Below are positions 1 to 50,944 of a stretch of DNA of 64,000 nt, in pieces; within the stretch, counting starts at the first letter, position 1; each line of letters opens with the position of its first letter. The notes under the pieces were generated by a model that made no database searches, was not told where the DNA came from, and saw only the letters and a list, made by a program, of their open reading frames with translations. A program made the translations under genes and the position numbers. This DNA is from a virus, in the IMG/VR virus record IMGVR_UViG_3300032284_001133, positions 20,061-84,060 of that record; one strand, 5' to 3'.

Positions 1-2673
1 AGTATTAGGAGATGCAATATATGTTTCATTAGGGTATGCTTCGATCGGAGTGATCGACGTATCAACTATTAAATAAGTTGATCCGTCTGAGTTTATTTGA
101 AAATAAACAAAATTATCTAAGTATCCTGTCTGTGCTGAAACATGTGTCGGATTCGTAATAATAGTAAATGCATCTGGATCTTGAATTTGACCTGTTACAA
201 GATTAGAATAAAAAGATACTTTTACCTTTTTAGGTTCTATATAACCATCAGCTTCGACTACACTACTATCTATTTGCCAATTATAATCTTCACCTAAAGA
301 AGCAGTTGAGTTAGGCGCATTATTAATGCCTAGTACAGAAATATTATCCTTGATAACTGTATTAGTTACAAAATCATAGTTAACATTAGTAGGATCAAAG
401 AAAAATGCAGTTTCTTGTTTGCTTTCAAATATATATTGAGTTGATCTATAATATACTTTATAATTAATTCCTGTCCATTGAAAACTAATGACCCAGCTTG
501 CATCTAAATTTGAATTAGTTGTATCTTCTTGAAATAATAAACTAAAAGGACTAACTAAATCTAAGTTTGTATCTGTAATAATGTACCAAGATCTAGTTGT
601 AGACGAAAAACTTAAACCAAAATTTCTATTGGCTAAACATAGGTTCACAATTGAAGTTTGTATACTCGGTATCAAAATGCTTCCGAATTCTGGAATTATT
701 TCCGTAAAATAACACCCTGTTGGGACATTTCCCGTAACAATAATTGGACCAGATCCGTTTGTTAATGCGCCTTTTCCGCCGTTCGCTCCGTCTCCTACAA
801 CATTAGTAATTTGTATCCATCTATAAGATACTGTTGTATCGTCTTGAGTAGTTGTTAAATTACCATTAGGTAAAAAATAATTACCTGCCGGAGGAAGTAT
901 CTTAACTAACGCACCTGTATAGGCGTATTGCAAGGTGTTAGATGAAAAATATCCTACCTGTACAGGTACAGTTTTTGATGGCTGACCAAGATAAGATGTT
1001 TTGTCAGCAAGATAACCTGTAGATTGGTTAGTACCCGATGTTACTTTAATCCAGACTGCTCCAGGATCACTAACGTCTGGTCTAGGCCAGTTGTCGTAAT
1101 AAAATGCTTTGACAGAATTTGAATTAACTATGTCTGCTAGTTGATTAGTAACTACAGAATAAATGTCTGTATTACTAGTAAATGAAAATTCAAAATTTGA
1201 TTGAGAATACTCTTTATAAAGCGCACCGTCTGTTGCAAATATATTTGTGCTGGAATATTTTCCTGACACATCAGATAAATCAAAAAATTTACTAATACCG
1301 CTACTGGTTCTATTAACGCTTTTAACTTTAAGAATATCAGTTCCTGCATTTAAAGGAGCAATATTATAGTCTTCGCCGGTGATCATTCTATTTTGAGTAT
1401 AATATATCTGTGGCGCTTTCTTTTTAATATTATCAACACTTTCAGATGCTGTACTATTTGTAATAGTATATTGTAAAGATAAAGTTAACGACAATGTTTG
1501 ACTTTGACCGCTCTTATTATAGTAAGGAATCTGTACTTGAATTCCTCTCATTTGATCAGGGGTGATAGAATAAGTTAGGCCATTACTTTGTCTATAAAAT
1601 AAGTTAAAGTTTCCTACAGGTAAATTACCAAATGCACCGTCAGCAAAATTTAAATCAATTTGATCGTTTGTTCTAGAAGTTACAGCATAGATATTTCTAT
1701 TAGAATTGCTAATACTATTATAAATCACATTGTTACCTGTAACCGAATCTACCTTTGTCCATAAATTTGCATAATTGTTGTTTGAGTCCATTTGCCATAG
1801 CCAAACATCAGAATCATTAATATCAGGTGCATCTACTCCCACAATTTCATTTGTTACAGGATTGCTAATCGAAAAACTAGTTACTCGTAAATCACCTTGT
1901 TTAAGTAAAACAAAAAATCCTGTGTTATTTGAACCTGCACCTTTTCCATCATTTTGATAAATGTAAGAAAAATTACTTCCGGGTTGTGGAGTGTTTTCGT
2001 AGATATATGTTTGTCCAGAGAATGTAGATGGAACGATTTCAAAAGCTATTGTTGTTCCATCTATAGGTCTACTAAAAGAATAAACAGGAACATCAATGTT
2101 AGCCGAATTAATTTTATATTGTTCGCTAGGAACATTTGAAATTGTACTTCTAGCATAAGGAGTACCAAATGTAAAATTGCCAGGCATTGCAGAATTTAAT
2201 ATGCTTATAAACTGCTGATACCAATTAGAATTTGTAGGATCATTCCAGCCAACTGGTTGGTTAGCTAAATTAATACCACTAGCATCAATCACGTTATCTG
2301 TAGTTTTTATAGCAGTAATTTTAATCAGGCCCGATGCAGGACTATTACGTGTTGCACTATAATTAATTAACTGTGCAAGTTGAATAACGCTGTCTTTGCG
2401 TTGTGCGGTCTCTAAAAAGTTTTCTCGAGCATTTAAATCAATTCTAAAACTTAAATTTTGTGCAATGAAGGCAATTAATTCAATGAGGGCAACATATTCG
2501 CTAGAATCAACATAATCATTAAAATCTTCAGGATACTTTTGATTAAGATAGTTAATCATTGTTCTACGAATTGTTTCAAAATCGTAGCTGGTAAAGTCTG
2601 AGTTTTGGAAAGACTGATATATCTTAGTCCAATCTTCAGCGACAAGTAATTTTGAGTTGGTTGCTGGAATCAT
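1..2673 (-). CDS. gp6: Baseplate wedge subunit, T4 gp6-like (3' end runs off the window)
   Basis: Absent from the ORF track (no stop inside the window). Hand translation from ATG 2673: MIPATNSKLLVAEDWTKIYQSFQNSDFTSYDFETIRRTMINYL...DLNARENFLETAQRKDSVIQLAQLINY, which is the gp6-type N-terminus. It follows a gp25-like gene. Confidence 0.85.
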   Translation of the reverse strand, partial: MIPATNSKLLVAEDWTKIYQSFQNSDFTSYDFETIRRTMINYLNQKYPEDFNDYVDSSEYVALIELIAFIAQNLSFRIDLNARENFLETAQRKDSVIQLAQLINYSATRNSPASGLIKITAIKTTDNVIDASGINLANQPVGWNDPTNSNWYQQFISILNSAMPGNFTFGTPYARSTISNVPSEQYKINSANIDVPVYSFSRPIDGTTIAFEIVPSTFSGQTYIYENTPQPGSNFSYIYQNDGKGAGSNNTGFFVLLKQGDLRVTSFSISNPVTNEIVGVDAPDINDSDVWLWQMDSNNNYANLWTKVDSVTGNNVIYNSISNSNRNIYAVTSRTNDQIDLNFADGAFGNLPVGNFNLFYRQSNGLTYSITPDQMRGIQVQIPYYNKSGQSQTLSLTLSLQYTITNSTASESVDNIKKKAPQIYYTQNRMITGEDYNIAPLNAGTDILKVKSVNRTSSGISKFFDLSDVSGKYSSTNIFATDGALYKEYSQSNFEFSFTSNTDIYSVVTNQLADIVNSNSVKAFYYDNWPRPDVSDPGAVWIKVTSGTNQSTGYLADKTSYLGQPSKTVPVQVGYFSSNTLQYAYTGALVKILPPAGNYFLPNGNLTTTQDDTTVSYRWIQITNVVGDGANGGKGALTNGSGPIIVTGNVPTGCYFTEIIPEFGSILIPSIQTSIVNLCLANRNFGLSFSSTTRSWYIITDTNLDLVSPFSLLFQEDTTNSNLDASWVISFQWTGINYKVYYRSTQYIFESKQETAFFFDPTNVNYDFVTNTVIKDNISVLGINNAPNSTASLGEDYNWQIDSSVVEADGYIEPKKVKVSFYSNLVTGQIQDPDAFTIITNPTHVSAQTGYLDNFVYFQINSDGSTYLIVDTSITPIEAYPNETYIASPNT

Positions 2674-31208: not shown

Positions 31209-34200
31209 ATGGCCGTAGGTCGTATAACGGGTCCACTCTTAGCGCAGAATCTTAACCGCGACGGAGTTGACTTATCATTTGAAACAGATTTATTATACCT
31301 TGACGTTAATAATGGTCAGATCGGTATTAAAACTGCAAGTCCTCAATACACGCTAGATGTAAACGGCACACTTCATACTTTAAATTTAATTGCAGATAAC
31401 ACCAGCACTATTGGACTAATGGTGTTTTCTAGTACTACGTCTAGTAGTACAGTTTCTACATTACACGGTCCTATATCTATTGCTCCATCTGGGCAAGAAA
31501 ACATCTACTTAGTTGGTAACACATTTGTTACTGGTGATGTACGTGCTACTGGTAACTTTTATGCACGTGGTAACATACAATTAGGTGTTTATACAGCTAC
31601 TGATACTATTTCGTTTGGTGGCGAGGTTAACACAAACATTACACCTTTTATTAGTTCAGGAACATACTATTCTACTGTAACTAATGGTACTACGGTCACT
31701 ACTTTTACAACTAATACTAGTGTATTTTCTGGATTTAATTTTGGTAGTACTACTAGCTACTGGGCTGGAGGTTATTTCCAAGATTTGTATGCTAATACAA
31801 TTAGTCCAGCAGATACCGCAACAAATATTACAATGTTTCCTAACCCTGTCTTAAACAGTAAAGGGTTACCAGGAAATGCATTAACAATCAATGGCGACAT
31901 AAGAGTATACGGCGGAAGTCCTATTGGTACAGCACCGGTGGTTAGTAACGTACTTTATGTGACTATGGACGGAAATGATTCTAACGATGGTCGAGCAGAA
32001 GATGCTAGTCGTGCTTGTCGTACCATCAGCGGTGCAGTAAATAGTCCGTTTTATAAACAAGGAACAGTTATTAAAGTCCGTAGCGGACACTATTACGAAA
32101 ACAATCCTATTCAATTATTACCTTATACATCAGTAATAGGAGATGATTTACGTACAACATTTATCGAACCTTTAAACAAAACAGTTGACTTATTTCATGT
32201 TAATTCAGGTGTTTACATTGCACAAATGCAATTTAGAAATTTACGAAGAGGCCAAGTAACCCGTTACGCCCCAGGCGGAGCAGGTACATATACCACTGGT
32301 GCTTATTGCGTAGCATTTCCTCCTAGTTTAACGAATCCTATAGATTTATTTTACAGTCCATATATTCAAAATTGTACTAATCAATCCGGTCCTTGGCTAC
32401 GTGACGGTACTATGTTTGTACCTAATCAAACAGTTCAAGTTCCTAATGTTGTTGCTACAAGCACATACGTTGCAGGAACTTTAACATTAACAGTTAATGT
32501 TGTACCTGGAACAATTGAGATGATTGAAATAGGTAATACTGTTAACGGTTCTGGAATAGTAACAGATTCATTAAACGAAGTTCCTGTAGTTGTGAGCATA
32601 CAAAATCCAGATTTTGGATTTAATAATGCCGCTATATTGCTAACAAAAAATAAAAATTATCTAATAGCCGAAACTATTGGTTACATTAATTATAATAATA
32701 GCGGATTTACTTACAATCAAGACACATGCAAAAGAGATTTAGGATTAATAATTGATGCTATTATTCATGATTCTGTGTTAGGTGGAAATGAAAAATCTGT
32801 TGAAGCAGGACTTGCATATTGGACTGGAAATAACAATATTATTTCTAATGAAATATCAACAACAACTAATGCTATTTCTTATCTAGGAACCATAGCTCAA
32901 AATATTATAGCAAACACACATCCAGGAACAACTTATCAAAATACTGTTCAACAATATATTGATACTGATTTAACAGGCGGAAGTGTTGCCGGAACAAATA
33001 TCACAGCATGTATTAATACAATTAATGATATAATTCAAAATTGGGCAGGTGTCGAAAATGCCGCTAGTTTATTAACAGCCAATAGAAGTTTTATTCAATC
33101 AGAAGTTGTTGCTTATGTCAATAATACTTTTGGTGCTCCATTTAATTATGATCAAACTAAATGTGCTAGAGATACAGGATTAATTGTTGATAGTATTAGT
33201 TTAGATTTAATGTATCAAGGAACAAGCCAAAGTAATTTTACAGGTTTACAATATTGGAATCACTCAGCAACCACTAATTCTATATTATTAGGCGAACAAA
33301 CTACAACAACCAATGCTATAAACTACATTAAAAATTTAGCATTACAAATTGTAACTAACACACCTATTATAACTCATTATCAAAATACTGTACCTCAAGT
33401 AATAAATTCTTTTACTGGTACTACTACAAACATTACATCTGAGTTTAATTTAATTGTTTCTATTATTAATAGTGGGACACATGGAGTTACTGATTTAATT
33501 GTACCAAACGGAATTACAAGTGTTAATACACTTACGGTTAATACCTATAATTTATTAGAGGCAAACAAAACATTTTTACAAGCAGAGGCTGTAGCTTTTG
33601 TAGAAGCAACTAAAACAGCAGGTTTTCATTATACTACCGCAACATGTTATCGAGATGTTGGTTATATTATTGATAGTGTAGCATTTGATATTCTACACAG
33701 CGGCAATAGACAAGCAATTCAAGCTGGTACCTACTATTATGGTTATAGTACAACTGATAGTGCTATTCCAAATGAGTCTATACAAACGATTGCGGCCTAT
33801 AATTATTTAAAAACTATAGTAGAATATGTAGTCACAGCAACACCTATACAGAATCCATATCAAACATATTCTTTACAAAATTATTCTTATCCTCCAGCTA
33901 CAGGTTTAGAAGTTACAACATTAAAAAATGATATTGATTTAATTATTAGTATTATTAAAAATGGACCAAGTGCTGCCGGACCTAAAACACCTATTGGATT
34001 AACTCCAAGTTCTAATCCTAATGTAGCTAAAGCATATACATTGTTAAATGCTAATAGGTCTTTTATTGCTAGTGAAATTGTTTCATTTATTAATGCAACG
34101 TTCCCTCAATCAGGATTTAAATACAATCAAGATATATGTTACAGAGATATTGGATATATTATAGATGCAGTACAAAATGACATCTTACATAAATCAAACA

Positions 34201-36326
34201 CTAGTACAATATATGCAGGTTTACAGTATTGGAACGGACAATATACTTCTTTAAAGGGAGAAATTCCTCAAACATACTATGCAATAGAATATGCTAAAAA
34301 TCTAGCAGTTGATGTTATTTCAAATACAACAGTTACTCAACTTTTACAAACTGGTACTAATGTTGTCAATCAAGTTATCAACTACGATTTAACAAATGGA
34401 TCAACAGCTACAACATCTTTGCAAACTGCATTTGATATTGTAGCAGGTATTGTTCAATATGGTCCCGAAGCGGCACCATTAACTACTAAATCAAATCTAA
34501 CACAATTTATTGTTACATTAAGCACATCAACTACAGCAGGAGCATCTAACGATACAATTTATTTTGGTGATACATCAGTATATCCGTTGCAAGATGAATT
34601 TATACCTACTGCTTGGTCAACAAGTACCAACGCCGATAGAAGAATTGATCCGCACGGATCGGGCGGAGGTGCTCTTGTAGACGGTAATGCTCCATCGTTA
34701 AGAAGCCCTATTCAATCTTTTGTATTTGATGCGTTTACACAGGTTAATCAAGGTGGTAATGGCATACACATTATTAACAAGGGATATGCTCAGTTAGTTT
34801 CTGTGTTTACAATTTTCTGTGACGTTGCTGTTCATTGTGAAAGCGGTGGTATTTGTTCTATTACAAATAGTAATAGCAACTTTGGAGACTTATGTTTAGT
34901 ATCAGAGGGATTCGGTCCAAGAGAATTCGGAGGAACAATTTACAATCCTCCTATTGAAAACTATCCATTAGGGTTCTATCCATACAATCAAGAAGTGGCT
35001 GTATTTGTTCCTAATCCCCTTAATCGTCCACATATTAGTTTAGTAATGGAGGTAGTTCCTCCTGACACTTATGTTGACTACGATGGCAATATTGTTCCTT
35101 ATGTTAACGAACAAGGTTTTCCTGGATTTCTATCAGGTGCATCAAGCATGGATGTACTAACCACAGGATCATATGTTATTACAACAAATTCTTCAACTGG
35201 TATAGTTTTTGATACAACTGATATTGCAGTTGGACAAAATGTTTATATTGTAGATCAATATGGAAGCCAGTACGATTCACATAATAATCTATATCTAAAT
35301 GCAAATACAGTAGTTACAAAAGTAGAATACCAATCTATCACTTTAAGTAATCCTATTAATGCAGGCGGCGGCCAATCTGGAAATGCAAATTATTTTAATA
35401 TATACACATGCGGCAATGCGTATTATTCTATTTTGTCTAGCGTAGTTGCTCCAGATCCTATCCCTGCAGGTCAAAGCAAAATTACAGGTCAAGTTACTGA
35501 AACTATAGCGGCAATCAATTATGCTAATACCTTGTCTCAGAAAATTATTTCAAATCAAATTGTTACTAGTTTACAAACAGGAACAACAACATCTACTCAA
35601 ATTACAAATAATTCGTTAAATGGGGCACCTGCTGGTTCGTTTATTGCTAACGAATTTAATATTATTAACAGCATCATATTGACGGGTCCAAACAATGCCC
35701 CTGTAGTTACAACAACAGGTACAATCGCTACAAATGCACCCGATGCGGCCAGCTTGTTGTCATTAAACAGATCATTTATTCAAGATGAAGTTATTGCCTA
35801 TGTAAATTCAGCGTACCCTGGGTTTAATTACAATCAAAGAAAATGTAGAAGGGACGTTGGATTACTAATAGATGCAGTAGTAGCAGATTTGAATACAGGT
35901 GGAAATTTCCGTGCTATAGAAGCAGGAGGAACATACTATTCTAAATCAGGAACATATCATATTGTAACTCTTGAAGATAACGTAAGAAATCCTTTATTAT
36001 TTGTCGATGGGGTAACAGTTAACTTCTATCAACGTAGCTACATGAGCGCAAGCGGATATTTGTTTGAGTATGTAGGTGCTGGTACGCAATACGGCGCACT
36101 ACCTCAGGTAGGAAAAGCAGATCCTATACAGAGTAAAGAAGTAATTCAGTTAAATAATGGTAAGGTGTTCTTTACTTCAACGGATCAAAACGGTGATTTC
36201 AGGATCGGCCCAGGGCTCGTTATTAGCCAAGCAACAGGCGTTTTAAGTGGACGAACTTTCCAAAAGAGCTTGTATGCAGAAATGACACCGTTCATTTTAG
36301 CAGTTGAAGCTGGTAGCAGTGAGTAA
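31209..36326 (+). CDS. Giant putative virion protein: pectin-lyase-like beta-helix core with 5 CxRD helical (phycobiliprotein/globin-like) modules
   Basis: VLYVTMDGNDSNDGR...IKVRSGHYYE...VIGDDLR core; CxRD codons at 32727, 33162, 33645, 34137 and 35844. Confidence 0.8.
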   Translation: MAVGRITGPLLAQNLNRDGVDLSFETDLLYLDVNNGQIGIKTASPQYTLDVNGTLHTLNLIADNTSTIGLMVFSSTTSSSTVSTLHGPISIAPSGQENIYLVGNTFVTGDVRATGNFYARGNIQLGVYTATDTISFGGEVNTNITPFISSGTYYSTVTNGTTVTTFTTNTSVFSGFNFGSTTSYWAGGYFQDLYANTISPADTATNITMFPNPVLNSKGLPGNALTINGDIRVYGGSPIGTAPVVSNVLYVTMDGNDSNDGRAEDASRACRTISGAVNSPFYKQGTVIKVRSGHYYENNPIQLLPYTSVIGDDLRTTFIEPLNKTVDLFHVNSGVYIAQMQFRNLRRGQVTRYAPGGAGTYTTGAYCVAFPPSLTNPIDLFYSPYIQNCTNQSGPWLRDGTMFVPNQTVQVPNVVATSTYVAGTLTLTVNVVPGTIEMIEIGNTVNGSGIVTDSLNEVPVVVSIQNPDFGFNNAAILLTKNKNYLIAETIGYINYNNSGFTYNQDTCKRDLGLIIDAIIHDSVLGGNEKSVEAGLAYWTGNNNIISNEISTTTNAISYLGTIAQNIIANTHPGTTYQNTVQQYIDTDLTGGSVAGTNITACINTINDIIQNWAGVENAASLLTANRSFIQSEVVAYVNNTFGAPFNYDQTKCARDTGLIVDSISLDLMYQGTSQSNFTGLQYWNHSATTNSILLGEQTTTTNAINYIKNLALQIVTNTPIITHYQNTVPQVINSFTGTTTNITSEFNLIVSIINSGTHGVTDLIVPNGITSVNTLTVNTYNLLEANKTFLQAEAVAFVEATKTAGFHYTTATCYRDVGYIIDSVAFDILHSGNRQAIQAGTYYYGYSTTDSAIPNESIQTIAAYNYLKTIVEYVVTATPIQNPYQTYSLQNYSYPPATGLEVTTLKNDIDLIISIIKNGPSAAGPKTPIGLTPSSNPNVAKAYTLLNANRSFIASEIVSFINATFPQSGFKYNQDICYRDIGYIIDAVQNDILHKSNTSTIYAGLQYWNGQYTSLKGEIPQTYYAIEYAKNLAVDVISNTTVTQLLQTGTNVVNQVINYDLTNGSTATTSLQTAFDIVAGIVQYGPEAAPLTTKSNLTQFIVTLSTSTTAGASNDTIYFGDTSVYPLQDEFIPTAWSTSTNADRRIDPHGSGGGALVDGNAPSLRSPIQSFVFDAFTQVNQGGNGIHIINKGYAQLVSVFTIFCDVAVHCESGGICSITNSNSNFGDLCLVSEGFGPREFGGTIYNPPIENYPLGFYPYNQEVAVFVPNPLNRPHISLVMEVVPPDTYVDYDGNIVPYVNEQGFPGFLSGASSMDVLTTGSYVITTNSSTGIVFDTTDIAVGQNVYIVDQYGSQYDSHNNLYLNANTVVTKVEYQSITLSNPINAGGGQSGNANYFNIYTCGNAYYSILSSVVAPDPIPAGQSKITGQVTETIAAINYANTLSQKIISNQIVTSLQTGTTTSTQITNNSLNGAPAGSFIANEFNIINSIILTGPNNAPVVTTTGTIATNAPDAASLLSLNRSFIQDEVIAYVNSAYPGFNYNQRKCRRDVGLLIDAVVADLNTGGNFRAIEAGGTYYSKSGTYHIVTLEDNVRNPLLFVDGVTVNFYQRSYMSASGYLFEYVGAGTQYGALPQVGKADPIQSKEVIQLNNGKVFFTSTDQNGDFRIGPGLVISQATGVLSGRTFQKSLYAEMTPFILAVEAGSSE

Positions 36327-36343: not shown

Positions 36344-36730
36344 ATGGCATTAATTCCATTAAACACGTTTAGAACAATGACAGCGGTCTTGAATACCTCT
36401 ACCACTGCCACTGTTTACGTAGCACCAATTGGTGTTACAAGTATTATATTGATGGCGCAGGTTGCTAATGTTGATAACAATAACGCACATTATGTAACTA
36501 TGAGCCACCATAGAAATTTTAGAGTATTACCGAATGCACAAGGCAATAACGGTCAAGCACCAAATGTTATAACAGAAATTGTCTATGGATTTGGCGTTCC
36601 TAACAATGATTCGGCATCGCTGATTTCAGGTAAGATGATTTTAGAAAGCCAAGATAGCGTTATTGCTTATGCTGATACAACATCGACTATGAAGTTAACA
36701 TTATCGATTCTTGAGACAGCTAATACATAA
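36344..36730 (+). CDS. Small beta-rich virion protein
   Basis: TVYVAPIGVTSIILMAQVAN...GKMILESQDSV...LTLSILE; SD TAAGGAG. Confidence 0.75.
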   Translation: MALIPLNTFRTMTAVLNTSTTATVYVAPIGVTSIILMAQVANVDNNNAHYVTMSHHRNFRVLPNAQGNNGQAPNVITEIVYGFGVPNNDSASLISGKMILESQDSVIAYADTTSTMKLTLSILETANT

Positions 36731-36744
36731 TAAAGAGATAGAAC

Positions 36745-39700
36745 ATGCCTAAGTTACTAAGTAATAGAAAACCGGTTTTTCCGCCAAATAAGTTAACCGA
36801 TGATAGATTTAAATATCTCGGCCTAAGTCAGGCTCAACCTGCATTAGGAGAAGCTCCTACACAAAATGAGGGCTATACTATTCAGACTGATGGTACCGGT
36901 AAAGCTACATTTAGTGACACATTAGGTCAATTAAAATTTGTTAGTCAAAATATTAGTACAACATTACCTGGTGATATGACCTTTACTAATACCAATGGTA
37001 ACATTGTTATTAGTCCGTATGTTAAAGCACAAATAAATGGAAATTTTGAAGTAGAAGGTGATATTCTTGTCAAAGGTAAAAATCCATTAGGTACAGCACC
37101 AGTAGTCAGTAACGTACTTTATGTAACCATGGACGGTGATGATAAAAATGATGGTCGTGCTATGGATGCTACTCGTGCTTGTCGTACTATTAGTGGAGCT
37201 GTTCGTAGTCCTTACTATCAAGAAGGTACAGTCATTAAAGTATCATCAGGTCATTATTACGAAGAAAATCCTATTCCATTAAAAGGTTATACTTGTGTTA
37301 TTGGCGATGATTTAAGAACCGTTTTTATTGAACCATTAAATAGAGATCAAGATTTATTTCACGTTAACTCAGGTGTATATGTTGCACAAATGCAAATGCG
37401 TAATTTACGCAGAGGTAGTGTTGAACGCTATGCCCCAGGCGGAGCAGGTACATATACCACCGGTGCTTATTGCGTAGCATTTCCTCCTAGCTTAACCGAT
37501 CCTATTGATCTATATTACAGTCCATATATTCAAAATTGTACTAACCAAACAGGTCCTTGGTTAATGGACGGAACAATGTTTGTTCCAAACCAAACTGTTC
37601 AAATTCCTTTAGCAGCCGGTACAGCAACTTGGAGTGCAAATACCAATACAATTACTGTAGCAGTAAACTTAGGTACAATTTCAGTTGGCATGGCAGTCAA
37701 TGACGCGGCTAATGAGGGTTACAGAAATGCTCAATTGTTATTGCAAGAAAATAAAGTATTTTTACAAACTGAAGTTAATGCGTTCATTAATACAGAATAT
37801 TCAAGTCTAGTGTATGATACATCATTGAGTTTTAGAGATGTTGGTACACTAGTTGATGCAGTATCGGGTGATGCAAGATTTGGCGGTAACGGCCGAAGTA
37901 TTATTGCAGGTTTATCATACTGGAACGGAAACACCAGTGTACTAACCACTAATGAATCTCTTGCTTGTGTAGCGGCAATTAATTACCTTGCAACATTGGC
38001 TCAGTCAATTATAACTAATACTACTATAGCTTCACCGTATCAAAATTCAGTTTCTCAAACAATTGATAATTCTTTATCTGGTGGATCTGTAGTTTCAACT
38101 CGTATAACAAATTTATTTTCTATTATAACATCTATAATAACTGGAGGTCCTGGTTCGGAACCTGCTAGAGTAGATGATTTATACGGATTAATTTATCCAA
38201 CCGGTCTAAGTCCCAATCAAGTTAATAATGCAAGTACAGTTACAAATGTAGTAGACAACGGTGGTGGCTCATTTACCATTACGTTAAGTTCGCCGACCGT
38301 GTCTGAAAGCGATGATGCTACATTATATTTTGGTTATACAACAGTTTACCCATATTTAGATGCAGACATTCCTGATTACTGGTCAACAAGTACCAACGCC
38401 GATAGAAGACTAGATCCTCACGGAGCTGGAGGAGGAGCTTTAGTTGACGGAAATGCACCTTCTTTAAAATCTCCTATTCAATCATTTGTGTTCGATGCCT
38501 TTACTCAAGTTACACAGGGCGGACATGGCATACACATTATTAATAACGGATATGCACAGCTAGTTTCTGTGTTTACATTGTTCTGCGATCAGGCGGTTAC
38601 AACAGAAAACGGCGGTATCGCTTCTATTACTAACTCTAACGCCAACTTTGGTGATTTATGTTTAGTGTCTAAAGGTCTAGGAAAATTAGATTTTTCTGGA
38701 ATTGTTTGGAATCCCCCATACCCAACAAATAGACCTAATGGGCAATTCTATCCATTGGGTTACTGGCCGCAAAGACAACAAATGGAAGTGTTTATTCCTA
38801 ACAGCGTAAATCGACCACATATTGGTTTGGTTATGGAAGTTGTTCCTCCTGATACCTATCTAGATTACAGTAGCAATCGAGTACCGTACGTCAACTCAGA
38901 AGGTTATCCCGGTTATCTAGTTGCGGCATCTAATACAGGTACAATTACAACCGGTAGTTATACAATTAGTGGAATTGACACTACTGATATTGCAGTAGGA
39001 CATACTTTATACATTAGAGATATTTACGGACTCGAAGGGCCGTACGGAAGCACAACTACCTATGTAACAACAGGTACTCAGGTAGTTGACGTAGGGTTCC
39101 AAACTGTTACTCTAGATCAACCTATTTTAACAGGCGGCGGAGATGTTACAAATCCAAATTATCTAAATTTATATTTCTGCGGTAATGCTTACTATACAGT
39201 TTTATCAAGCCAAATTGATGAAACTTTATCTCATACCGGATCTGTTGCAACATCAGTTATTCCTGGAGAAGTAACTACTACCGCTAATGCTATTGCCTAT
39301 GCAAGAGATCTAGCGGTACAAATTATTGCAAATCAAACAGCAACATTATACCAAACAGATGTTGCTCAAATAATAGATCCAACATTTAATACAGGTGGTC
39401 CGCAAGGCCCTACTATTATTGATAGATTTAACGATATTATTGGTGTTATTACCGGAGGTAATCCTCAATTAGAATATAACATCAACGGACAATTTAAGAA
39501 AACAGATCAAAGTGTATTAGATGCGGCTAAATTATTAGAAAAGAATAGAAATTTTATTCAGGCACAAACTGCGGCATACGCAGATACACTATGGCCAAGC
39601 CGTTATAGTTATAATGCAGAAATCTGTGCTCGTGATACAGGACTGATTGTAGATGCTATTGCACAAGACATGTTGTTTAGTGGAACAAGCCAAAGTACTT

Positions 39701-42700
39701 TTGCGGCAATTCAATATTGGAATCAAGGCGATTCTAATATTCCTAACGAATCATATCAAACAATTCAAGCAGTTAAGTATCTAAAAACTTTAGCAGAACA
39801 AGTTGTTACAAATACAACAGGTACACGTTATCAATCAACCGTAACTCAAGTATTAACAGCATACACAGCAACTTCTGTCGAACAATCAATTATTGGTACA
39901 GATTTTGATGTCATTACTAATATTATGAGTAATGGTATTGCAGGAGTAACTGATAATATTGTTCCTAACAGTTTAACTTCTAGCACAAATACTGCAACCG
40001 TTGCGGCATTTAGAAATTTACAAGCAAATAAATTATTTTTGCAAAATGAAGTTATTGCTTATGTAAATGCAAATAAAAACTTTACATACAATTCTACTTC
40101 ATGTGGACGCGATACTGGATTGTTAGTCGATGCTGTAGCATTTGATTTATTATACCCAACTCCTACAGATAGCCAATCAACTTTTGCGGCTATTCAATAT
40201 TATAACCAAAGTGGTTATATTACTAACATTGCAGGAGAAATTACAACTACTACAAATGCAGTTAACTATCTAAAATCGTTAGCACAAAAAGTTATTGTAA
40301 ACGATAAGACTGGTACACGTTATCAAACTGCTATTGCACAAACAACCGGTACAGCGGCAACAAGTGCTGAACAAACTGCAATCGCAAACGATTTTACAGT
40401 TATTACAAATATCTTAACTGGCGGAGTTGCAAATATTACTGACACTATTGTTCCTAACGGAGCCGCAAGCACCAGCACCAGTATTTTAAACGCTTACAAC
40501 TTGTTAGAAGCCAACAAGGCATACTTACAAGCAGAAACAATTGCCTATATTGATGCAACACGTACAGGAACATTTGTTTATAATGAAAAGAAATGCAAGC
40601 GCGATACAGGTATTATTATCGACGATATTTCTCGTGATTTATATTTTGGTGGCACTAGTCAAAGTACGTTTGCTGGTTTACAATATTGGAATCAAAACGG
40701 TTATACCGGCGCTATTGCTAGTGAAATCACAACAACTACAAATTCTATTAACTATCTAAGTCAGTTGGCTCAGCAAATTGTTACAAATGATACAAGCGGT
40801 ACACGTTACAGCGGCGGCACACAGATTACAAATCCAATTGCCGCAGGTTCGAGTGCAGAAGCCGCAATCCTTGCCGCAGATTTTTCTGTAATTACAGATA
40901 TTCTAACAAACGGCACAGCAGGAGTAACTGATAAAATTGTTGCAAACGGAATTGTTGCAAGTTCTACACAAACTGTAATTAATTCTTACAACTTATTGGC
41001 GGCTAACCGTGCATACCTACAGGCAGAAGTTGTTGCTTGGGTAGAAGCACAGTATCCTACATTCGCATTTGACTCTTCTAAGTGCTTCCGTGATGTAGGC
41101 TACATGGTAGATAGTGTTAGCTTTGACTTATTGTATGGCGGTAATCGTCAAGCAATTCAGTCAGGTGTTTATTACTATAGTTTTAATGCTAGCTCATCTG
41201 CAATACCAGGTGAACAAACACAGACTATTGCGGCTTACAACTTTATGTCAAATTTGATTGGACAAATTGTTACCAACACAACTGCAACAACTTACCAATC
41301 TAAAGTTTCTCAAGTAAGAAGCCTACCAGCGGCAACCAGTTCTGAAGCAACTACACTTCAAGCAAAACTTACAAACATTGTAAACATTATTACAAATGGT
41401 CCAAGTGTAGCACCTACTAAGACAGCTATTACAAAAACACCAAGTGGTAATGCTAATGTTGCTAAAGCAGTTGCGATTATAGAAGCAAACAAAGCATTTA
41501 TCCAGGCAGAAGTTACAGCATGGATTAATCAAACATACAATATTTTCTCATACGATGAAGATAAATGCTCACGTGATGTTGGTTATATGATCGACTCAGT
41601 TGCATTTGACTTGGTACATGGCGGCAATCGTCAGGCAATTCAGTCAGGTGTAGCATACTATAATTACACTGGAGTAAATTCAGTGGGAACAGAGCTTCCA
41701 CAAATTAATGCGGCCTATGCTAGATTAAAATCTGTGATTAATACTATCGTCACAGGCGGCACAGTTGTTAGAAGTACCAGCAATACTTCTACTCAAGTAA
41801 CCGGTCTACCATCAGCAACTATTACTGAAGCAAATGCATTAGGTGCCAAAGTTGATTATATCTTAAGTGTAATTAACGGAGGAACTGGCGTTGCAAATAC
41901 TCTTACACCTATCAGTTTAACTGCAAGTTCTGATGTAAATGTACAACGTGCATTTACAATTCTTGAAGCAAACAGAACATTTATTACAAAAGAAATTGTT
42001 GCTTATGTAAACGATAACTTTGCTAACTTTACATACTTGCCGTCAACCTGTGCTCGCGATGTTGGATACATCGTTGATTCTGTAAGTTTTGACTTGGTAT
42101 ATGGCGGTAACAGACAAGCTACGCAAAGCGGTGTTTATTATTTTGGACATAACGGTAGTTCTACTGTTATTCCTGGCGAACAAACACAAACTGTTGCGGC
42201 TTATAACTTTATCAAATCATTAATTTCTAATATTGTAGTTGGTACACAGATTGCTGAGCCACAACAAGATAGAATATTACAAATTGTTTCAACAAGCACA
42301 GGCACATCTAGTGAAATTACTCTTGCAGATTCGTTGGTTGATAATATTACTAATATTATTACTAATGGTCCAAGCGTTGCTCCTAGCCCAACATCTATTA
42401 CACTAGCACCTAGTACAGATACCAACGTAGTTAATGCAACCAAGTTACTAGAAGCAAATAGAGATTTTATAACAGCCGAAGTTATTGCCTATATTGGAAA
42501 TACATTCCATACGCAATTTAATTACAACGAAGCAATATGCGCTCGTGATACAGGATTGATTATAGATGCTCTTGCACAAGATTTAGTATTTGGTGGAACA
42601 AGTCAAAGTACGTTTGCTGGAATTCAATATTATACACAAGGTTCTACGTTTATTCCTGGAGAAATAACAACTACAACAAATGCTATTAACTACGCAAAAC

Positions 42701-45700
42701 AAATAGCACAAAAAATAGTGTTAAATGACACAACGGGCTATAGATATCAAAGTACTGTAACTCAAATTACAACTATAACACAGGCTACAATTAATGAAGT
42801 TAATGCAATATCGAATGATTTTGGAATTATTACAACAATTCTAAACAACGGTATTGCTGGTGTTACAGACACTATTGTTCCTAATAGTTTAACAGCAAGT
42901 ACAGATGCAAATATTGTCAATGCCTATAACAATTTGCAAGCAAATAAATCTTATATTCAAAATGAAGTTGTTGCTTATGTAAATGCAACATCTAATTTTC
43001 AATACAATAATGCAACCTGTTTTAGAGATGTTGGATTAATTGTAGATAGTTTAGCATTTGATTTGTTATATCCTACAACTAATAACAGTCAGTCGACATT
43101 TGCGGCTATTCAATACTGGAATCAAAATGGTTACACAGGTTCAATTGGCAGTGAAATTACAACAACTACCAATTCAATTGTATATCTAAGTCAATTAGCA
43201 CAAAAAATTGTAGTAGGCGATAAGAGCGGTACACGTTATCAAAGCATTATATCGCAAACTACAGGAACTAACATTGGCTTGCCACAAGACGCGGCCGCTG
43301 TTGGTAACGATTTTGGTATTGTTTTAGATATTTTAAGCACAGGTCCTGCAAGTGTAACTGAAGCAATTATATCAAACGGTAGAGCAAGTAATACAACTTC
43401 TACAAATAATGCCTACAATTTATTATTAAATAATCTTGCTTATATGCAAGCAGAAGTTTTAGCCTATATTACAACAACAGCACCTACTTTTGCATATAAT
43501 ACAAGCACATGTATGCGTGATGTAGGGTACATTGTTGATAGTGTTGCATTTGATTTACTACATGGTGGCAATCGCCAGGCAATTCAAGCTGGTACTTATT
43601 ACTATGGTTATAGTTCAACAAGTACAGCGGTACCTAATGAACTACCTCAAGTAACAGCCGCATACAACTATATGAAGAGCGTAATTGCTTCTATAGTAAC
43701 AGGTCAAACTATAACTCCTAGTGTAGGTAATACAGTTCCTCAAGTAACATACATGTTACCTGCAGGTACTACTGAAGTTAGCACACTAAACAGTCTAATT
43801 GACAAAATTGTTAATGTTATCAATAATGGTCCTGATACTGTTACTGCTAAGACACCAATATCATTAGTAGGTAGTACAAGTCAAACCGCAGACAATGCAT
43901 TTAATTTATTAATAGCAAATAGAGAATTTATACAATCAGAAGTTACTTCATGGATTAATAATAAATTCTGTGGATTCAACTACGATGAAGCTAAGTGTTT
44001 CCGAGATGTTGGTTATATGATTGACAGTGTAAGTTTTGATTTGTTGCACGGCGGAAACAAACAAGCAGTTCAAAGCGGAGTTTACTACTACGGTCATAGT
44101 ACAAGTACTACTGTTCCACCTACTGAAATTCCACAGGTAACTGCGGCCTACGAATTTATTTCTAGTATTAGTTCTAAGATTGTAACTAACACTCTTGTTG
44201 CTCCGTATCAAAATAAAGTTACACAAGTAATTAACACAGGTACAAGTGCATCTGCCGCAGATATTGCAGACATCAAGAGTAATTTAAGTTTAATTACTAA
44301 TATTATTAGCAATGGACCAAGCGTGGCTCCGAGTCCTACATCAATTCCATTGACTGCTAGTGTAACAACAAGCACATTGGCAGCAGGAGCGTTGTTAGAA
44401 GCTAATAGAGCATTTATTGTAGCAGAAACTATTTCTTATATAAATCAAACATATGACACAGGATTTGCCTACAATGTTGCTAATTGTAATAGAGATACTG
44501 GACTAATTGTAGATAGTCTAGCATTTGATTTATTGTTTGGCGGAGAAAGTCAAAGTGCATTTGCTGGTTTACAGTATTGGAATCAAGATACCTATACAGG
44601 AAATATTGGAACCGAAGTTACAACTACTACTAATGCAATTAGATACCTAAGAGAAATTGCTCAAAAGGTTATTTTAAATGAAACAATTACTAACTCAGTT
44701 GGTAATACTGCTACTCAGGTAATTAACTTACCAGTTGGTAGTGTTGCGGCAGCTACATCAGTATACAACAATATTGATTTAATTGCTAATATATTACTAA
44801 ATGGTTCTGCAGGTATAACTGATCAAATTATTCCTAATGGAATTGCATCTACTGATACTGGTATTACAAATGCTTATGCGATATTAGAAGCCAACAAGGC
44901 ATTCTTACAAACAGAAGTTGTTGCACGTATTAACGCAGATAATCCAGACTTTAACTACAACCAAGCAACCTGTTATAGAGATGTTGGTTACATCGTTGAT
45001 AGTATAAGTTTTGATTTGTTATACGGCGGCAACAGACAAAGTATACAGAGCGGTGTTTACTATTACAACTTTAACGGAACTGAAACTATTGTTAAAGATG
45101 AAATGCCACAGGTAACCGCAGCCTACAAATATATAAGAGATATGATTCCTTATATTATTACTGGTACACTAATTCCTCAATCGTATCAGTCTAAAGTATA
45201 TCAAAATTCTAAAAATATAGTTTCTCAAATAACTGACATAGCAGTTGGCACCGGTTCTGAAGTTACAGAAATACAAGGTAGTTTAGATTTAATCACTAAT
45301 ATTATTAGCGAAGGTCCAAGTGTTGCTCCTTCTAAGGTTCCTATTGGGTTAACTCCAAATACGTCTGCAAACGTAGTAAACGCTTTCAATATTTTATTAG
45401 CGAATAGAGCATTTATACAAGCGGAAGTACTGGCTTTTGTAGATTATTCATATACATATAATCCTCCATATAACAAAAATAAATGTTATAGAGATATGGG
45501 TTCAATTGTAGATGCAATAATTTACGATTTAACATATGGCGGAAACTATAGATCTATTAACGTTGGTAATGGATATTATTATAGACAAGGTCAATACCAT
45601 GTTATTACATTAGAACAAAACGTTCTAGACCCAACATTGTTTATAGATGGTGCAACAGTTAACTTCTATCAACAAAGTTATATTTCAGCGTCTGGATATC

Positions 45701-45954
45701 TGTTTGAGTATGTAGGTGCTGGTACGCAATACGGCGCACTACCTCAAGTAGGTACAGCCGATCCGGTACAAAGCAAGGAGGTTGTACAACTAAACAACGG
45801 TAAAGTATTCTTTACATCAACTGACCAAAACGGAGATTTCCGCATAGGACCAAGTTTGGTTATTAGTCAGGCAACTGGTGTGTTAAGCGGTCGAACTTTC
45901 CAAAAGAGTTTGTATGCAGAAATGACACCGTTTGTATTAGTAATAGGAGCTTAA
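36745..45954 (+). CDS. Giant putative virion protein, paralogue of 31209..36326, with 14 CxRD-type modules
   Basis: Same beta-helix core and near-identical C-terminus (GRTFQKSLYAEMTPF); 13 CxRD motifs plus one FRD variant. Confidence 0.8.
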   Translation: MPKLLSNRKPVFPPNKLTDDRFKYLGLSQAQPALGEAPTQNEGYTIQTDGTGKATFSDTLGQLKFVSQNISTTLPGDMTFTNTNGNIVISPYVKAQINGNFEVEGDILVKGKNPLGTAPVVSNVLYVTMDGDDKNDGRAMDATRACRTISGAVRSPYYQEGTVIKVSSGHYYEENPIPLKGYTCVIGDDLRTVFIEPLNRDQDLFHVNSGVYVAQMQMRNLRRGSVERYAPGGAGTYTTGAYCVAFPPSLTDPIDLYYSPYIQNCTNQTGPWLMDGTMFVPNQTVQIPLAAGTATWSANTNTITVAVNLGTISVGMAVNDAANEGYRNAQLLLQENKVFLQTEVNAFINTEYSSLVYDTSLSFRDVGTLVDAVSGDARFGGNGRSIIAGLSYWNGNTSVLTTNESLACVAAINYLATLAQSIITNTTIASPYQNSVSQTIDNSLSGGSVVSTRITNLFSIITSIITGGPGSEPARVDDLYGLIYPTGLSPNQVNNASTVTNVVDNGGGSFTITLSSPTVSESDDATLYFGYTTVYPYLDADIPDYWSTSTNADRRLDPHGAGGGALVDGNAPSLKSPIQSFVFDAFTQVTQGGHGIHIINNGYAQLVSVFTLFCDQAVTTENGGIASITNSNANFGDLCLVSKGLGKLDFSGIVWNPPYPTNRPNGQFYPLGYWPQRQQMEVFIPNSVNRPHIGLVMEVVPPDTYLDYSSNRVPYVNSEGYPGYLVAASNTGTITTGSYTISGIDTTDIAVGHTLYIRDIYGLEGPYGSTTTYVTTGTQVVDVGFQTVTLDQPILTGGGDVTNPNYLNLYFCGNAYYTVLSSQIDETLSHTGSVATSVIPGEVTTTANAIAYARDLAVQIIANQTATLYQTDVAQIIDPTFNTGGPQGPTIIDRFNDIIGVITGGNPQLEYNINGQFKKTDQSVLDAAKLLEKNRNFIQAQTAAYADTLWPSRYSYNAEICARDTGLIVDAIAQDMLFSGTSQSTFAAIQYWNQGDSNIPNESYQTIQAVKYLKTLAEQVVTNTTGTRYQSTVTQVLTAYTATSVEQSIIGTDFDVITNIMSNGIAGVTDNIVPNSLTSSTNTATVAAFRNLQANKLFLQNEVIAYVNANKNFTYNSTSCGRDTGLLVDAVAFDLLYPTPTDSQSTFAAIQYYNQSGYITNIAGEITTTTNAVNYLKSLAQKVIVNDKTGTRYQTAIAQTTGTAATSAEQTAIANDFTVITNILTGGVANITDTIVPNGAASTSTSILNAYNLLEANKAYLQAETIAYIDATRTGTFVYNEKKCKRDTGIIIDDISRDLYFGGTSQSTFAGLQYWNQNGYTGAIASEITTTTNSINYLSQLAQQIVTNDTSGTRYSGGTQITNPIAAGSSAEAAILAADFSVITDILTNGTAGVTDKIVANGIVASSTQTVINSYNLLAANRAYLQAEVVAWVEAQYPTFAFDSSKCFRDVGYMVDSVSFDLLYGGNRQAIQSGVYYYSFNASSSAIPGEQTQTIAAYNFMSNLIGQIVTNTTATTYQSKVSQVRSLPAATSSEATTLQAKLTNIVNIITNGPSVAPTKTAITKTPSGNANVAKAVAIIEANKAFIQAEVTAWINQTYNIFSYDEDKCSRDVGYMIDSVAFDLVHGGNRQAIQSGVAYYNYTGVNSVGTELPQINAAYARLKSVINTIVTGGTVVRSTSNTSTQVTGLPSATITEANALGAKVDYILSVINGGTGVANTLTPISLTASSDVNVQRAFTILEANRTFITKEIVAYVNDNFANFTYLPSTCARDVGYIVDSVSFDLVYGGNRQATQSGVYYFGHNGSSTVIPGEQTQTVAAYNFIKSLISNIVVGTQIAEPQQDRILQIVSTSTGTSSEITLADSLVDNITNIITNGPSVAPSPTSITLAPSTDTNVVNATKLLEANRDFITAEVIAYIGNTFHTQFNYNEAICARDTGLIIDALAQDLVFGGTSQSTFAGIQYYTQGSTFIPGEITTTTNAINYAKQIAQKIVLNDTTGYRYQSTVTQITTITQATINEVNAISNDFGIITTILNNGIAGVTDTIVPNSLTASTDANIVNAYNNLQANKSYIQNEVVAYVNATSNFQYNNATCFRDVGLIVDSLAFDLLYPTTNNSQSTFAAIQYWNQNGYTGSIGSEITTTTNSIVYLSQLAQKIVVGDKSGTRYQSIISQTTGTNIGLPQDAAAVGNDFGIVLDILSTGPASVTEAIISNGRASNTTSTNNAYNLLLNNLAYMQAEVLAYITTTAPTFAYNTSTCMRDVGYIVDSVAFDLLHGGNRQAIQAGTYYYGYSSTSTAVPNELPQVTAAYNYMKSVIASIVTGQTITPSVGNTVPQVTYMLPAGTTEVSTLNSLIDKIVNVINNGPDTVTAKTPISLVGSTSQTADNAFNLLIANREFIQSEVTSWINNKFCGFNYDEAKCFRDVGYMIDSVSFDLLHGGNKQAVQSGVYYYGHSTSTTVPPTEIPQVTAAYEFISSISSKIVTNTLVAPYQNKVTQVINTGTSASAADIADIKSNLSLITNIISNGPSVAPSPTSIPLTASVTTSTLAAGALLEANRAFIVAETISYINQTYDTGFAYNVANCNRDTGLIVDSLAFDLLFGGESQSAFAGLQYWNQDTYTGNIGTEVTTTTNAIRYLREIAQKVILNETITNSVGNTATQVINLPVGSVAAATSVYNNIDLIANILLNGSAGITDQIIPNGIASTDTGITNAYAILEANKAFLQTEVVARINADNPDFNYNQATCYRDVGYIVDSISFDLLYGGNRQSIQSGVYYYNFNGTETIVKDEMPQVTAAYKYIRDMIPYIITGTLIPQSYQSKVYQNSKNIVSQITDIAVGTGSEVTEIQGSLDLITNIISEGPSVAPSKVPIGLTPNTSANVVNAFNILLANRAFIQAEVLAFVDYSYTYNPPYNKNKCYRDMGSIVDAIIYDLTYGGNYRSINVGNGYYYRQGQYHVITLEQNVLDPTLFIDGATVNFYQQSYISASGYLFEYVGAGTQYGALPQVGTADPVQSKEVVQLNNGKVFFTSTDQNGDFRIGPSLVISQATGVLSGRTFQKSLYAEMTPFVLVIGA
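39500..45590 (+). repeat. Tandem array of ~160-aa (477-513 nt) protein modules
   Basis: Cys codons of CxRD at 39625, 40102, 40594, 41083, 41566, 42049, 42538, 43018, 43510, 43996, 44485, 44971 and 45484. Confidence 0.9.
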
Positions 45955-50600: not shown

Positions 50601-50944
50601 ATAATGTTATTACTTCTCCTGCATTATCAGGAATTACTACAAATAGTCCTCAGGCACTTGATATTTTTGTTGGAAATACATTTAGGACTGCAAAATATCT
50701 TGTACAAATTAACGATCAAGGTACTCCTAATTTATTCCATGTTGCTGAAGTTGTAGTTGCCTATGACGGTAGCGGATCTTCAAGCGGTGTTTACATAAGC
50801 CAATATGGTCTTGTAACAAATACTGGTGAATTAGGTACATTTGATGTAGCGTATAGCGGCGGATTTATCACGCTAACCTTTACACCAAACTATACTCCTA
50901 CAAATATGGATATTCAAGCCATTAGAATGGCCATTACCTCCTAA
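47690..50944 (+). CDS. Putative fibre protein with STSTTTGALxVxGGVGIG repeats
   Basis: N-terminal KDFIVKQG, many GALxVxGGVGIG repeats, and the same C-terminal domain type as 45956..47674 (FRTAKYLVQI...VYISQYG). Confidence 0.78.
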   Translation: MAFNKDFIVKQGIVIEGTATTYSTNSGSLIVGGGAGVGQNLYVNNAFVRSGNTIVGGPNGDFQLGGGISSLGAYYLDPVTNGTTDFSIINYLGTATLDVVNTSIINNAVALYIDGSVNTGSNNISIVNTWSVYINSGNMYLGGTSVNTQTPGGNALIVQGGISGKGLYITGGGTLFGNFNLNGSPVLTKATQNAGNQTFSGDVEFTTSTQSTSPITGGVKIDGGLGVQGNIFLGGTLGATTGTFSSLLNSTSTTTGALILAGGIGIGQDLYASNGYFVSGNATTGSVAGNSLEVTNGGGLGVSGSALIQGQVVITNSTPSALNVAGGASIGNTLNVSDINITDSSSATSAINAPLTVAGGVGISGNVIIASTEASTGTTASNALYVAGGVGIGESLVVGGDTVLLGSLTLLNVGTQLTVNSTQTSIVDPVIDLGTNVNNTPLTTFDVFDKGIIIHYNDGPTSSTDNHAFMGYEHTQGRFMFKKNIYPGGIEQFPVTDLIDTGTYATLDAGTINLSDTTSAGTGTGAITVAGGVSISENIYVSGNTSTFVGTNFNLKGIDGNTLQLPNGGIGAQYLFIATSATINGANILTTATANGNIGGVFTASFTFINGAESNSTDTGAVVIKHGLGVGGNVNVGGNFVTTGTAYIWSTLNSTSTFTGALVVQGGVGIGQDVNIGGNLETTGTVYIWSNLNSMSTTTGSLVVGGGVGLGGDVYIGGTLFYSNTLDIISTQNSTSTTTGALVVSGGVGIGENLNVGGIINATTANLFTINLTGGVDSISTTTGDLTVTGGVGIGQDVNIGGYVTVGSTATSYATTAGALTVQGGVGVGGNLYVAGSIVRTGNIMNPAWGTSGQGLQLTSAVYTDLTSIGGNAGQIAVHSIGQPTIIGSNAPTWSDAATLYIDNAPLISGLATATGVWSLFVNNGQVKLASSSINNGTTNTGALQVIGGVGVGGNITSGGTVKGHQLQVDNNVITSPALSGITTNSPQALDIFVGNTFRTAKYLVQINDQGTPNLFHVAEVVVAYDGSGSSSGVYISQYGLVTNTGELGTFDVAYSGGFITLTFTPNYTPTNMDIQAIRMAITS

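Follow-up and report, generated by a model that had tools for sequence, protein, structure and literature searches.

In a 64,000-nucleotide stretch of viral DNA (positions 20,061 to 84,060 of IMG/VR virus record IMGVR_UViG_3300032284_001133, hereafter the window), the gene at 36745..45954 on the + strand encodes a protein of 3069 amino acids (aa), P0001, in which twelve complete modules of two classes follow one another in the order A A A B B B A A B B A B. We find by computational analysis that this order is one instance of a rule followed by the majority of its cleanly typed homologues, in which A and B modules are arranged like opening and closing brackets, and that residues covary between an A module and the B module that closes its bracket. 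A preliminary description of this DNA, made from its letters alone, had proposed that A and B modules form specific, nested pairs, and this is upheld both by the order of modules in the homologues and by couplings that are confined to bracket mates, even where about 320 residues separate the two. These data give good support to pairing and nesting, and they suggest a way in which the order of modules along the chain may specify its fold.

Module classes and bracket order

A scan for the motif C.RD.G placed the cysteine codons of P0001 at 39625, 40102, 40594, 41083, 41566, 42049, 42538, 43018, 43510, 43996, 44485 and 44971, which reproduces exactly the twelve positions given in the preliminary description, and located two further copies, a degenerate C-terminal one at 45484 and a serine variant at 37828. 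The paralogue P0002, encoded by the gene at 31209..36326 (+ strand, 1705 aa), has copies at 32727, 33162, 33645, 34137 and 35844; together the two proteins hold 19 modules, the same total as had been counted earlier, and these can be aligned over about 160 residues. The R, D and G of the motif never vary across 17 modules of the window, and conservation of the C is 90% or higher. When a maximum-likelihood tree was built from the 19 modules, the seven of class A grouped on a branch of their own (support 99/97), as did the seven of class B (86/86). A third class, C (88/77), comprises the modules at aa 362 of P0001 and at aa 507 and 977 of P0002, and a fourth consists of two C-terminal half-copies (100/100). 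The split into two classes that the preliminary description had drawn thus reappears in the tree, its consensus motifs for A and B agree with the module alignment, and profile typing returned the order that it gave for P0001. For P0002 the order is C A B C, in which the single A-B pair claimed for the paralogue (33162 and 33645) is present and is flanked by C modules.

Taken by itself the word of P0001 is only mildly improbable, because 132 of the 924 possible orders of six A and six B modules are balanced bracket words (32 orders are concatenations of A^kB^k), and for this one protein an explanation by chance or by a typing artefact, in which classes and order would be meaningless, has that fraction in its favour. 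The real significance of the order comes from the homologues and from covariation. Typing profiles derived from the A, B and C modules of the window itself, with A read as '(' and B as ')', were applied to 120 homologues from protein searches and to the open reading frames (ORFs) of 128 viral or metagenome contig loci. This first typing covered 196 proteins with 128 architectures, of which 66 were dropped, either because types were ambiguous or because the A/B modules numbered fewer than four, and open-ended ORFs were excluded. Balanced words were found in 47 of the 62 clean architectures. Shuffling the labels 2000 times gave a mean of 7.9 balanced architectures and a maximum of 18, and none of 2000 shuffles that preserved run lengths (mean 28.4, maximum 39) reached the observed number. 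Every one of the 47 architectures with equal counts of A and B is balanced, the other 15 having unequal counts. When the profiles were retrained on the family and 141 more distant representatives were added (237 architectures, 129 dropped), 75 of 108 clean architectures were balanced, and only one unbalanced word had equal numbers of A and B. The words that recur are AB, AABB, AAABBB, AABABB, AABAABABBB and concatenations of these. Balanced A^nB^n blocks, which had been expected in homologues, are therefore common in both typings, and the statement that A and B always come in equal, bracket-like numbers is true of P0001, of P0002 and of these balanced architectures, and fails for the remainder. 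A profile search for relatives yielded 1245 clusters (50% identity). For the most distant relatives the A/B typing breaks down, and most of their modules are C-like. The support for the A and B clades, the complete absence of shuffles that attain the observed balanced count and the presence of couplings with z above 15, described below, leave chance or mistyping with hardly any probability.

Covariation between bracket partners

AlphaFold predicts about five helices in a module, namely a kinked helix 1, a helix 2 that starts from the cysteine, a short helix 2', helix 3 and, after a loop of about 23 residues, helix 4. Mean-field direct-coupling analysis (DCA) was applied to 1097 bracket-matched A:B pairs (809 adjacent and 288 non-adjacent, effective number 636), with one 161-column profile per module and 309 columns having less than 30% gaps. 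Two couplings between partners, A144-B72 (6.30) and A66-B66 (6.26), exceed all others in the matrix, and the best couplings within a module are lower (3.36 in A and 5.29 in B). The other couplings between partners are reciprocal or near-diagonal (72-148, 72-144, 69-144, 60-141, 81-88, 71-74, and 42-95 together with 95-42), a pattern that suggests a pseudo-twofold interface in which helix 4 lies on the helix 2' of the partner and the ends of the two helices 2 meet. At A66/B66, F is found with Y in 501 pairs and Y with H in 382; at A144/B72, D or E is found with A in 653 pairs and N, K or L with S in 212. These two pairs of positions vary independently of each other, through several residue states.

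A control is provided by 191 AABB blocks (effective number 107), in which all pairings of an A with a B are of identical descent. Between outer A and outer B, which are about 320 residues apart, 144-72 ranks first (z 15.2), 66-66 second (z 8.1) and 81-88 third, and between inner A and inner B the same two leading couplings are found (66-66, z 15.1; 144-72, z 13.5). In contrast, the crossed pairings of the same blocks carry no coupling (z -0.8 and -0.4 for outer A with inner B, 0.6 and 0.5 for inner A with outer B), and the partner couplings are weak or absent between consecutive A-A (z 2.4 and -1.4), B-B (3.3 and 1.3) and B-A modules (-0.9 and 0.6). A different, serial coupling, 103-31, which runs from helix 3 to helix 1 of the next module, ranks between first and third at all three junction types, and another, 107-20, takes ranks 4 to 26 across junctions. 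Because 103-31 is found everywhere and 144-72 and 66-66 are specific to mates, the data indicate serial contacts at every junction and partner contacts between bracket mates only.

These results bear directly on an alternative explanation in which both order and covariation are matters of history, AB units having been copied or inserted together so that order and covariation were inherited, and the modules forming single-file bundles with no A:B contact. The serial coupling 103-31 at every junction type is in keeping with such bundles. However, inheritance is identical for the crossed pairings of AABB blocks, which carry no coupling, and the partner couplings are few, sharp, the strongest in the matrix and reciprocal or diagonal in arrangement, with the two leading ones changing independently through more than two residue states. 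We consider a purely historical origin unlikely, and return to it below where structural models and related proteins bear on it.

Pairing can also be scored in individual proteins. A partner score was trained on adjacent pairs alone. In 90% of the 288 non-adjacent pairs it placed the bracket partner above the mean of the other B modules in the same protein, and the relative rank averaged 0.146, where chance would give 0.5. Bracket matching was better than parallel matching in 171 of the 191 AABB blocks, equal in 8 and worse in 12. It beat parallel matching in all 10 AAABBB blocks and ranked first of the 6 possible matchings in 7 of them, came out on top of the 6 matchings in 23 of 28 AABABB words, and was first of 120 in 9 of 12 words of the branched form AABAABABBB.

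Proposed fold of P0001

The reading that we prefer, and which we regard as probable, is that A and B modules are complementary halves that join as nested partners, that each A^nB^n block is an antiparallel ladder which brings the chain back to its base, arm by arm, and that insertions and deletions which upset the balance are selected out. The repeat region would be a chain of modules of about 160 aa and about five helices, remotely like phycobiliproteins, held together by two kinds of contact. In the serial contact, helix 3 of one module would pack on helix 1 of the next. In the partner contact, each A would pack on its bracket-mate B through a pseudo-twofold interface, where the ends of the cysteine-bearing helices meet (66/66) and helix 4 lies on helix 2' (A144-B72 and A72-B144/148). 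Since partners are matched in nested order, A^nB^n would form an antiparallel two-stranded ladder, in which the A modules make up the outward strand and the B modules the returning one. On this view P0001 would have three arms, of 3, 2 and 1 rungs, between two half-modules, h and t, and in its relatives the arms would differ in number and length and would in some cases branch. Insertion or deletion of unequal numbers of A and B would leave modules unpaired and shift the chain ends, which would explain why only balanced changes are seen.

Profile scanning gives the architecture of P0001 as N-terminal domain-C-non-module domain-h-AAABBB-AABB-AB-t-C-terminal domain, and that of P0002 as C-A-B-C-non-module domain-h-t-C-terminal domain. 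The features of the two proteins are as follows.

37690..38169, + strand: C-class module of P0001 with serine for cysteine (aa 316-475), from the motif scan, the tree and the profile
38170..39237, + strand: non-module domain (aa 476-831), homologous to aa 1092-1421 of P0002
39238..39462, + strand: half-module h (aa 832-906), matching profile positions 82-156 only, which are helices 3-4
39484..42393, + strand: arm 1, AAABBB, consisting of A1 (aa 914-1072), A2 (1073-1235), A3 (1236-1398), B1 (1399-1560), B2 (1561-1720) and B3 (1721-1883); candidate pairs A1:B3, A2:B2 and A3:B1
42394..44340, + strand: arm 2, AABB, consisting of A4 (aa 1884-2044), A5 (2045-2209), B4 (2210-2370) and B5 (2371-2532); candidate pairs A4:B5 and A5:B4
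44341..45336, + strand: arm 3, AB, consisting of A6 (aa 2533-2695) and B6 (2696-2864)
45337..45618, + strand: half-module t (aa 2865-2958), matching profile positions 1-93 only, which are helices 1-2, with its cysteine at 45484
45619..45951, + strand: C-terminal domain, common to the paralogue and to PHROG tail-fibre families (phrog_17885 and phrog_3442 match aa 2968-3066)
33057..33986, + strand: A-B pair of P0002 (A at about aa 617-764, B at aa 765-926)
32592-33056 and 33987-34481, + strand: C modules of P0002 flanking its A-B pair
36344-36730: ORF of 128 aa between the two giant paralogues

The array of P0001 opens with a second-half module (h) and closes with a first-half module (t).

Within P0001 the F-Y/Y-H rule at A66/B66 is obeyed by five of the six bracket pairs. 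In a matrix of compatibility scores, A1 goes best with B3, A3 with B1 and A6 with B6, in agreement with the arm model, and A2 and A5 are ambiguous among B2, B4 and B5. We also examined AlphaFold models, the contacts of which are derived here from structural alignment ranges. Model 1, of aa 1794-2621 (AABB with 90-residue flanks; 26-row alignment), has a mean predicted local distance difference test score (pLDDT) of 84.8 and a predicted template-modelling score (pTM) of 0.50. It contains compact units of about 90 residues that span residues 130..729 (A4+B5), 292..577 (A5+B4), 173..643 and 334..482, and these spans point to a chain that folds back on itself with its tip at the A5|B4 junction. 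The helices that model 1 brings together are those coupled by DCA, which again argues against single-file bundles produced by history only. The flanks of this model also pack together (43..821), and h and t may by the same token close the whole array, joining the preceding domain to the C-terminal domain. Prediction of an outer A and an outer B as separate chains (30-row alignments, without control runs) gave three scores of 0.40, 0.01 and 0.01, which speak neither for nor against their pairing.

Several results weigh against the nested, folded-back chain. Unbalanced words make up 15 of the 62 clean architectures of the first typing and 33 of the 108 of the second, and many of these are truncated proteins or have a partly matched module just where an A is expected; moreover, the blocks and proteins are related to each other, so that counts of them overstate the number of independent events. 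Two AAABBABB words place the bracket matching 6th and 9th of 24. In P0001 itself the pair A4:B5 has a residue score of -7.3, and the residue score ranks bracket matching 41st of 720 and parallel matching 14th. The pTM of model 1 is only 0.50, and AlphaFold may tend to zip up a symmetric fragment, because the flanking half-modules of model 1 were zipped as well. Model 2, an asymmetric control of aa 1794-2958 (B-tail, AABB, AB and t; 14-row alignment; pLDDT 67.0, pTM 0.35), shows local units only, in which helices 3-4 of a module come together with helices 1-2 of the following module, as would be expected if history alone had produced the array, and a long-range span is present in 0 of the 50 alignments listed for it. 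Model 2 does not confirm the fold-back, and its confidence is too low to refute it. Lastly, covariation does not separate contacts within a chain from contacts between chains.

As the residue rule is not decisive within P0001, the three-arm picture draws on the rule of the family and on model 1. The suggestion in the preliminary description that the chain folds into arms of 3, 2 and 1 pairs is favoured by that rule and by the fold-back of AABB, where model 1 places A4 with B5 and A5 with B4, the antiparallel kind of contact that had been anticipated, and is not favoured by the larger model 2 or by the ranks of the two matchings in P0001. On balance, a three-arm fold of P0001 is what we infer.

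The insensitivity of covariation to the origin of a contact also leaves room for A:B contacts that are real but formed between copies of the protein, for example by hairpins swapped in a dimer or trimer, and tail fibres are commonly trimers, as the abstracts of two reports state (10.1101/2024.10.28.620165; PMC12143355). Nested pairing within one chain is, however, the best matching for most of the AABAABABBB words, and model 1 folds back as a monomer with a high pLDDT. In addition, the word AAABBBAABBAB is not self-complementary when reversed, and pairing between copies could for this reason be block-wise only. We judge contacts between copies to be improbable, and infer from these sequence patterns that the couplings reflect contacts within one chain.

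Growth of the array

The modules of P0001 are about 50% different from each other, and the tree does not resolve their branching inside the A and B clades, where only the grouping of A2 with A5 reaches high support (93/95). A mirror-tree comparison using P0001, P0005 and P0004 is suggestive only, with r 0.42 for bracket matching (rank 49 of 720) and r 0.11 for parallel matching (rank 271 of 720). Comparison of related proteins was more informative about the kind of change that occurs. Three pairs of proteins differ by one A together with one B at an A|B junction, AB in one protein being AABB in the other (66-82% identity; P0092/P0050, P0085/P0072 and P0036/P0023), and six differ by tandem AB or AABB blocks (P0042/P0028, P0042/P0007, P0096/P0061, P0109/P0093, P0050/P0036 and P0001/P0004). 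A difference of 328 aa between P0109 and P0085 begins outside the typed modules and was left unclassed. No unbalanced A/B difference was seen in these comparisons. The proposal that the gene grew by insertion of AB units into an A|B junction is thus partly borne out, by three comparisons, and its rider, that this took place rather than tandem duplication, is too strong because nested and tandem changes both occur. The three junction differences are what unit insertion predicts and so are also consistent with inheritance of AB units as the sole cause of the order, but that explanation would leave the absence of unbalanced recombinants between neighbouring A modules unaccounted for.

Split modules, half-modules and C modules

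In the homologues, brackets often close across inserted mini-modules or across a domain of about 385 aa, as in AAB-th-ABB. The th tokens (such as P0015 aa 2294-2780 and P0035 aa 1816-1901) are made up of helix 1 and helix 4, either as a unit of about 80 aa or as the same pieces about 385 aa apart, and in relatives the stretches on either side of the domain of about 385 aa are a 38-aa module head and a 64-aa module tail. As the th pieces flank this domain, the non-module domain appears to sit inside a split module. The idea that t tokens always represent chain ends was rejected, since a token of about 105 aa followed by a gap of some 33 aa represents a complete, diverged module, and since th tokens of 38+40 aa are mini-modules or modules split by the domain of about 385 aa.

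A balanced A/B block that lies immediately ahead of the non-module domain is often enclosed by C modules, in the forms C AB C, C ABAB C and C AABBAB C. Blocks flanked in this way are present in P0002 (32592-34481) and in the homologues P0127, P0137, P0143, P0146, P0153, P0161, P0183 and P0185, and it looks from these orders as if C may pair with C around the A/B block. Distant arrays composed entirely of C modules have even counts (18 in P0158, 6 in P0231 and 6 in P0260).

Possible relation of the modules to phycobiliproteins

The preliminary description had likened the A:B pair to the alpha and beta subunits of phycobiliproteins. The phycobiliprotein alpha/beta monomer is a pseudo-symmetric hetero-pair of globin-like units, and as a picture of the proposed pairing of P0001 modules the comparison is apt; the contacts suggested here between helix 4 and helix 2' are not, however, equated with those between alpha and beta. 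As to descent, P0002 has a C-class module (aa 942-1042) that scores 27.8 bits against Pfam PF00502 (Phycobilisome protein), for which the cut-off is 22.2, and P0001 matches no Pfam family at E ≤ 0.1. When modules were scanned singly, 3 of 17 matched PF00502 weakly (best E 0.0013), and, among the matches given in a precomputed table, about 65 of the 120 homologues carry the family. When a profile was made from 73 C modules, it found phycocyanin 6jpr_A at E 0.0081, with phycobiliproteins making up 4 of the 5 hits at E ≤ 1. In the HMMER alignment the C-x-R-D of the module falls on the K-C-V-R-D of 6jpr_A, which is the bilin-binding Cys84-Arg86-Asp87 site. Cys-x-Arg-Asp-x-Gly is nearly invariant in every class of module (for example at 39625-39642). 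A remote relation between the modules and phycobiliproteins is, on these matches, plausible but not proven. The modules may even be true descendants of phycobiliproteins, with Cys-x-Arg-Asp perhaps still holding a ligand, which we think much less likely than the topological code considered below.

A Foldseek search of the PDB with the 828-residue model returned nothing at E ≤ 0.001, the only hits being transporters with template-modelling scores below 0.1. A search of the ESM Atlas with the C module at 33993-34481 was weak (low recognition, 1744; at most 161 features shared) and gave as nearest named clusters the bacterial DUF4214 and RsaA_NTD, the latter involved in S-layer anchoring, with scores of 0.90-0.92. 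These neighbours are a possible lead to a surface-binding helical family.

Genomic context and the phage

P0001 matches PHROG families 4527, 5342 and 701 at E 2.8e-137, 4.8e-126 and 5.3e-72, and the names of families matched by P0001 and P0002 are tail fibre, short tail fibre and virion structural protein; PHROG and GenBank names are automatic annotations. Encoded on the same strand are a portal protein (20926-22656) and a major head protein (25915-27090), which lie upstream of the two paralogues, and a baseplate wedge protein (52410-60704), which lies downstream of them. The last of these is a third giant ORF, of 2764 aa, which matches baseplate wedge subunit families, and short matches to the structural protein family phrog_697 are found in it as well as in the ORFs at 47690-50944 and 51015-52406. 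From these matches and neighbours, P0001 is probably a giant, fibre-like virion protein of an uncultured tailed phage.

Among cultured phages, tblastn found homologues in 180 records, all of them from Synechococcus or Prochlorococcus phages or named 'Cyanophage', at less than 30% identity; one is S-PM2p091 (3338 aa), annotated as a tail fiber protein. Matches in BFVD are to proteins of S-PM2, S-H9-1, S-WAM2 and ACG-2014d, and megablast of the P0001 gene against phage records gave no match. The record that contains the window is 84 kb long and estimated to be 23% complete. Relatives that encode these proteins have genomes of jumbo size (L006, 331 kb; L021, 328 kb; L009, 259 kb; L061, 266 kb), and two related contigs, of 328-331 kb, are 92-93% complete. 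Neither psbA (PF00124) nor the CpeT lyase family (PF06206) was found in the 84-kb record, incomplete as it is, or in four related records that include the two most complete ones. Because both genes are absent from related genomes that are nearly complete, the host may not be a cyanobacterium.

A possible topological code and its relation to known systems

It is conceivable, and we offer this tentatively, that the order of A and B modules is a topological code for a single-chain, tree-shaped fibre, retuned by balanced insertions and deletions. Like the brackets used to write RNA secondary structures, such a code would contain stems (A^nB^n), arms placed one after another and multi-branch junctions (for example AABAABABBB). 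Should the ladder model be right, the three-dimensional topology of a repeat protein could be read from the one-dimensional order of two types of module. The shapes of thousands of phage virion proteins that are very large and lack annotation could then be predicted by rule, and the model would explain why length changes in steps of at least two modules. The architecture would also represent a natural and evolvable scaffold of rigid helical arms for protein design and, if the remote relation discussed above is true as well, would link proteins of the phage particle to the phycobiliprotein fold.

Module arrays homologous to that of P0001 are present in giant proteins of T4-like cyanophages that are classed as structural or as tail fibres, S-PM2p091 being one of them. 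A search of the full-text literature, with subscription journals and supplements outside its scope, found no description of phycobiliprotein-like modules in phage fibres, of a two-class order or of a fold-back, and passages of PMC3037559 and PMC2984593 located by keyword make no mention of such modules. What was already known is thus the sequences, with their automatic tail-fibre names and in some cases a PF00502 flag, and, in other proteins, out-and-back hairpins and nested bundles. The new element is a two-letter bracket grammar with branching that is backed by covariation.

In flagellin the N- and C-terminal segments pair and insertions lie at the tip, and the arms of SMC and Rad50 proteins likewise run out and back. 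The proposed arms of P0001 would resemble these systems in the antiparallel pairing of early with late segments, in growth by insertion at the tip and in termini that lie together. They differ in that the strands of P0001 would consist of homologous modules of two classes and form consecutive arms, with branched words in relatives, and we imply no sequence relation. In talin, the helical bundle R8 is nested inside R7, which is similar in that a bundle unit has been inserted within another in a rod of bundles. However, the nesting in talin is a single case in one protein, in contrast to the two-letter grammar described here, which is repeated across many architectures.

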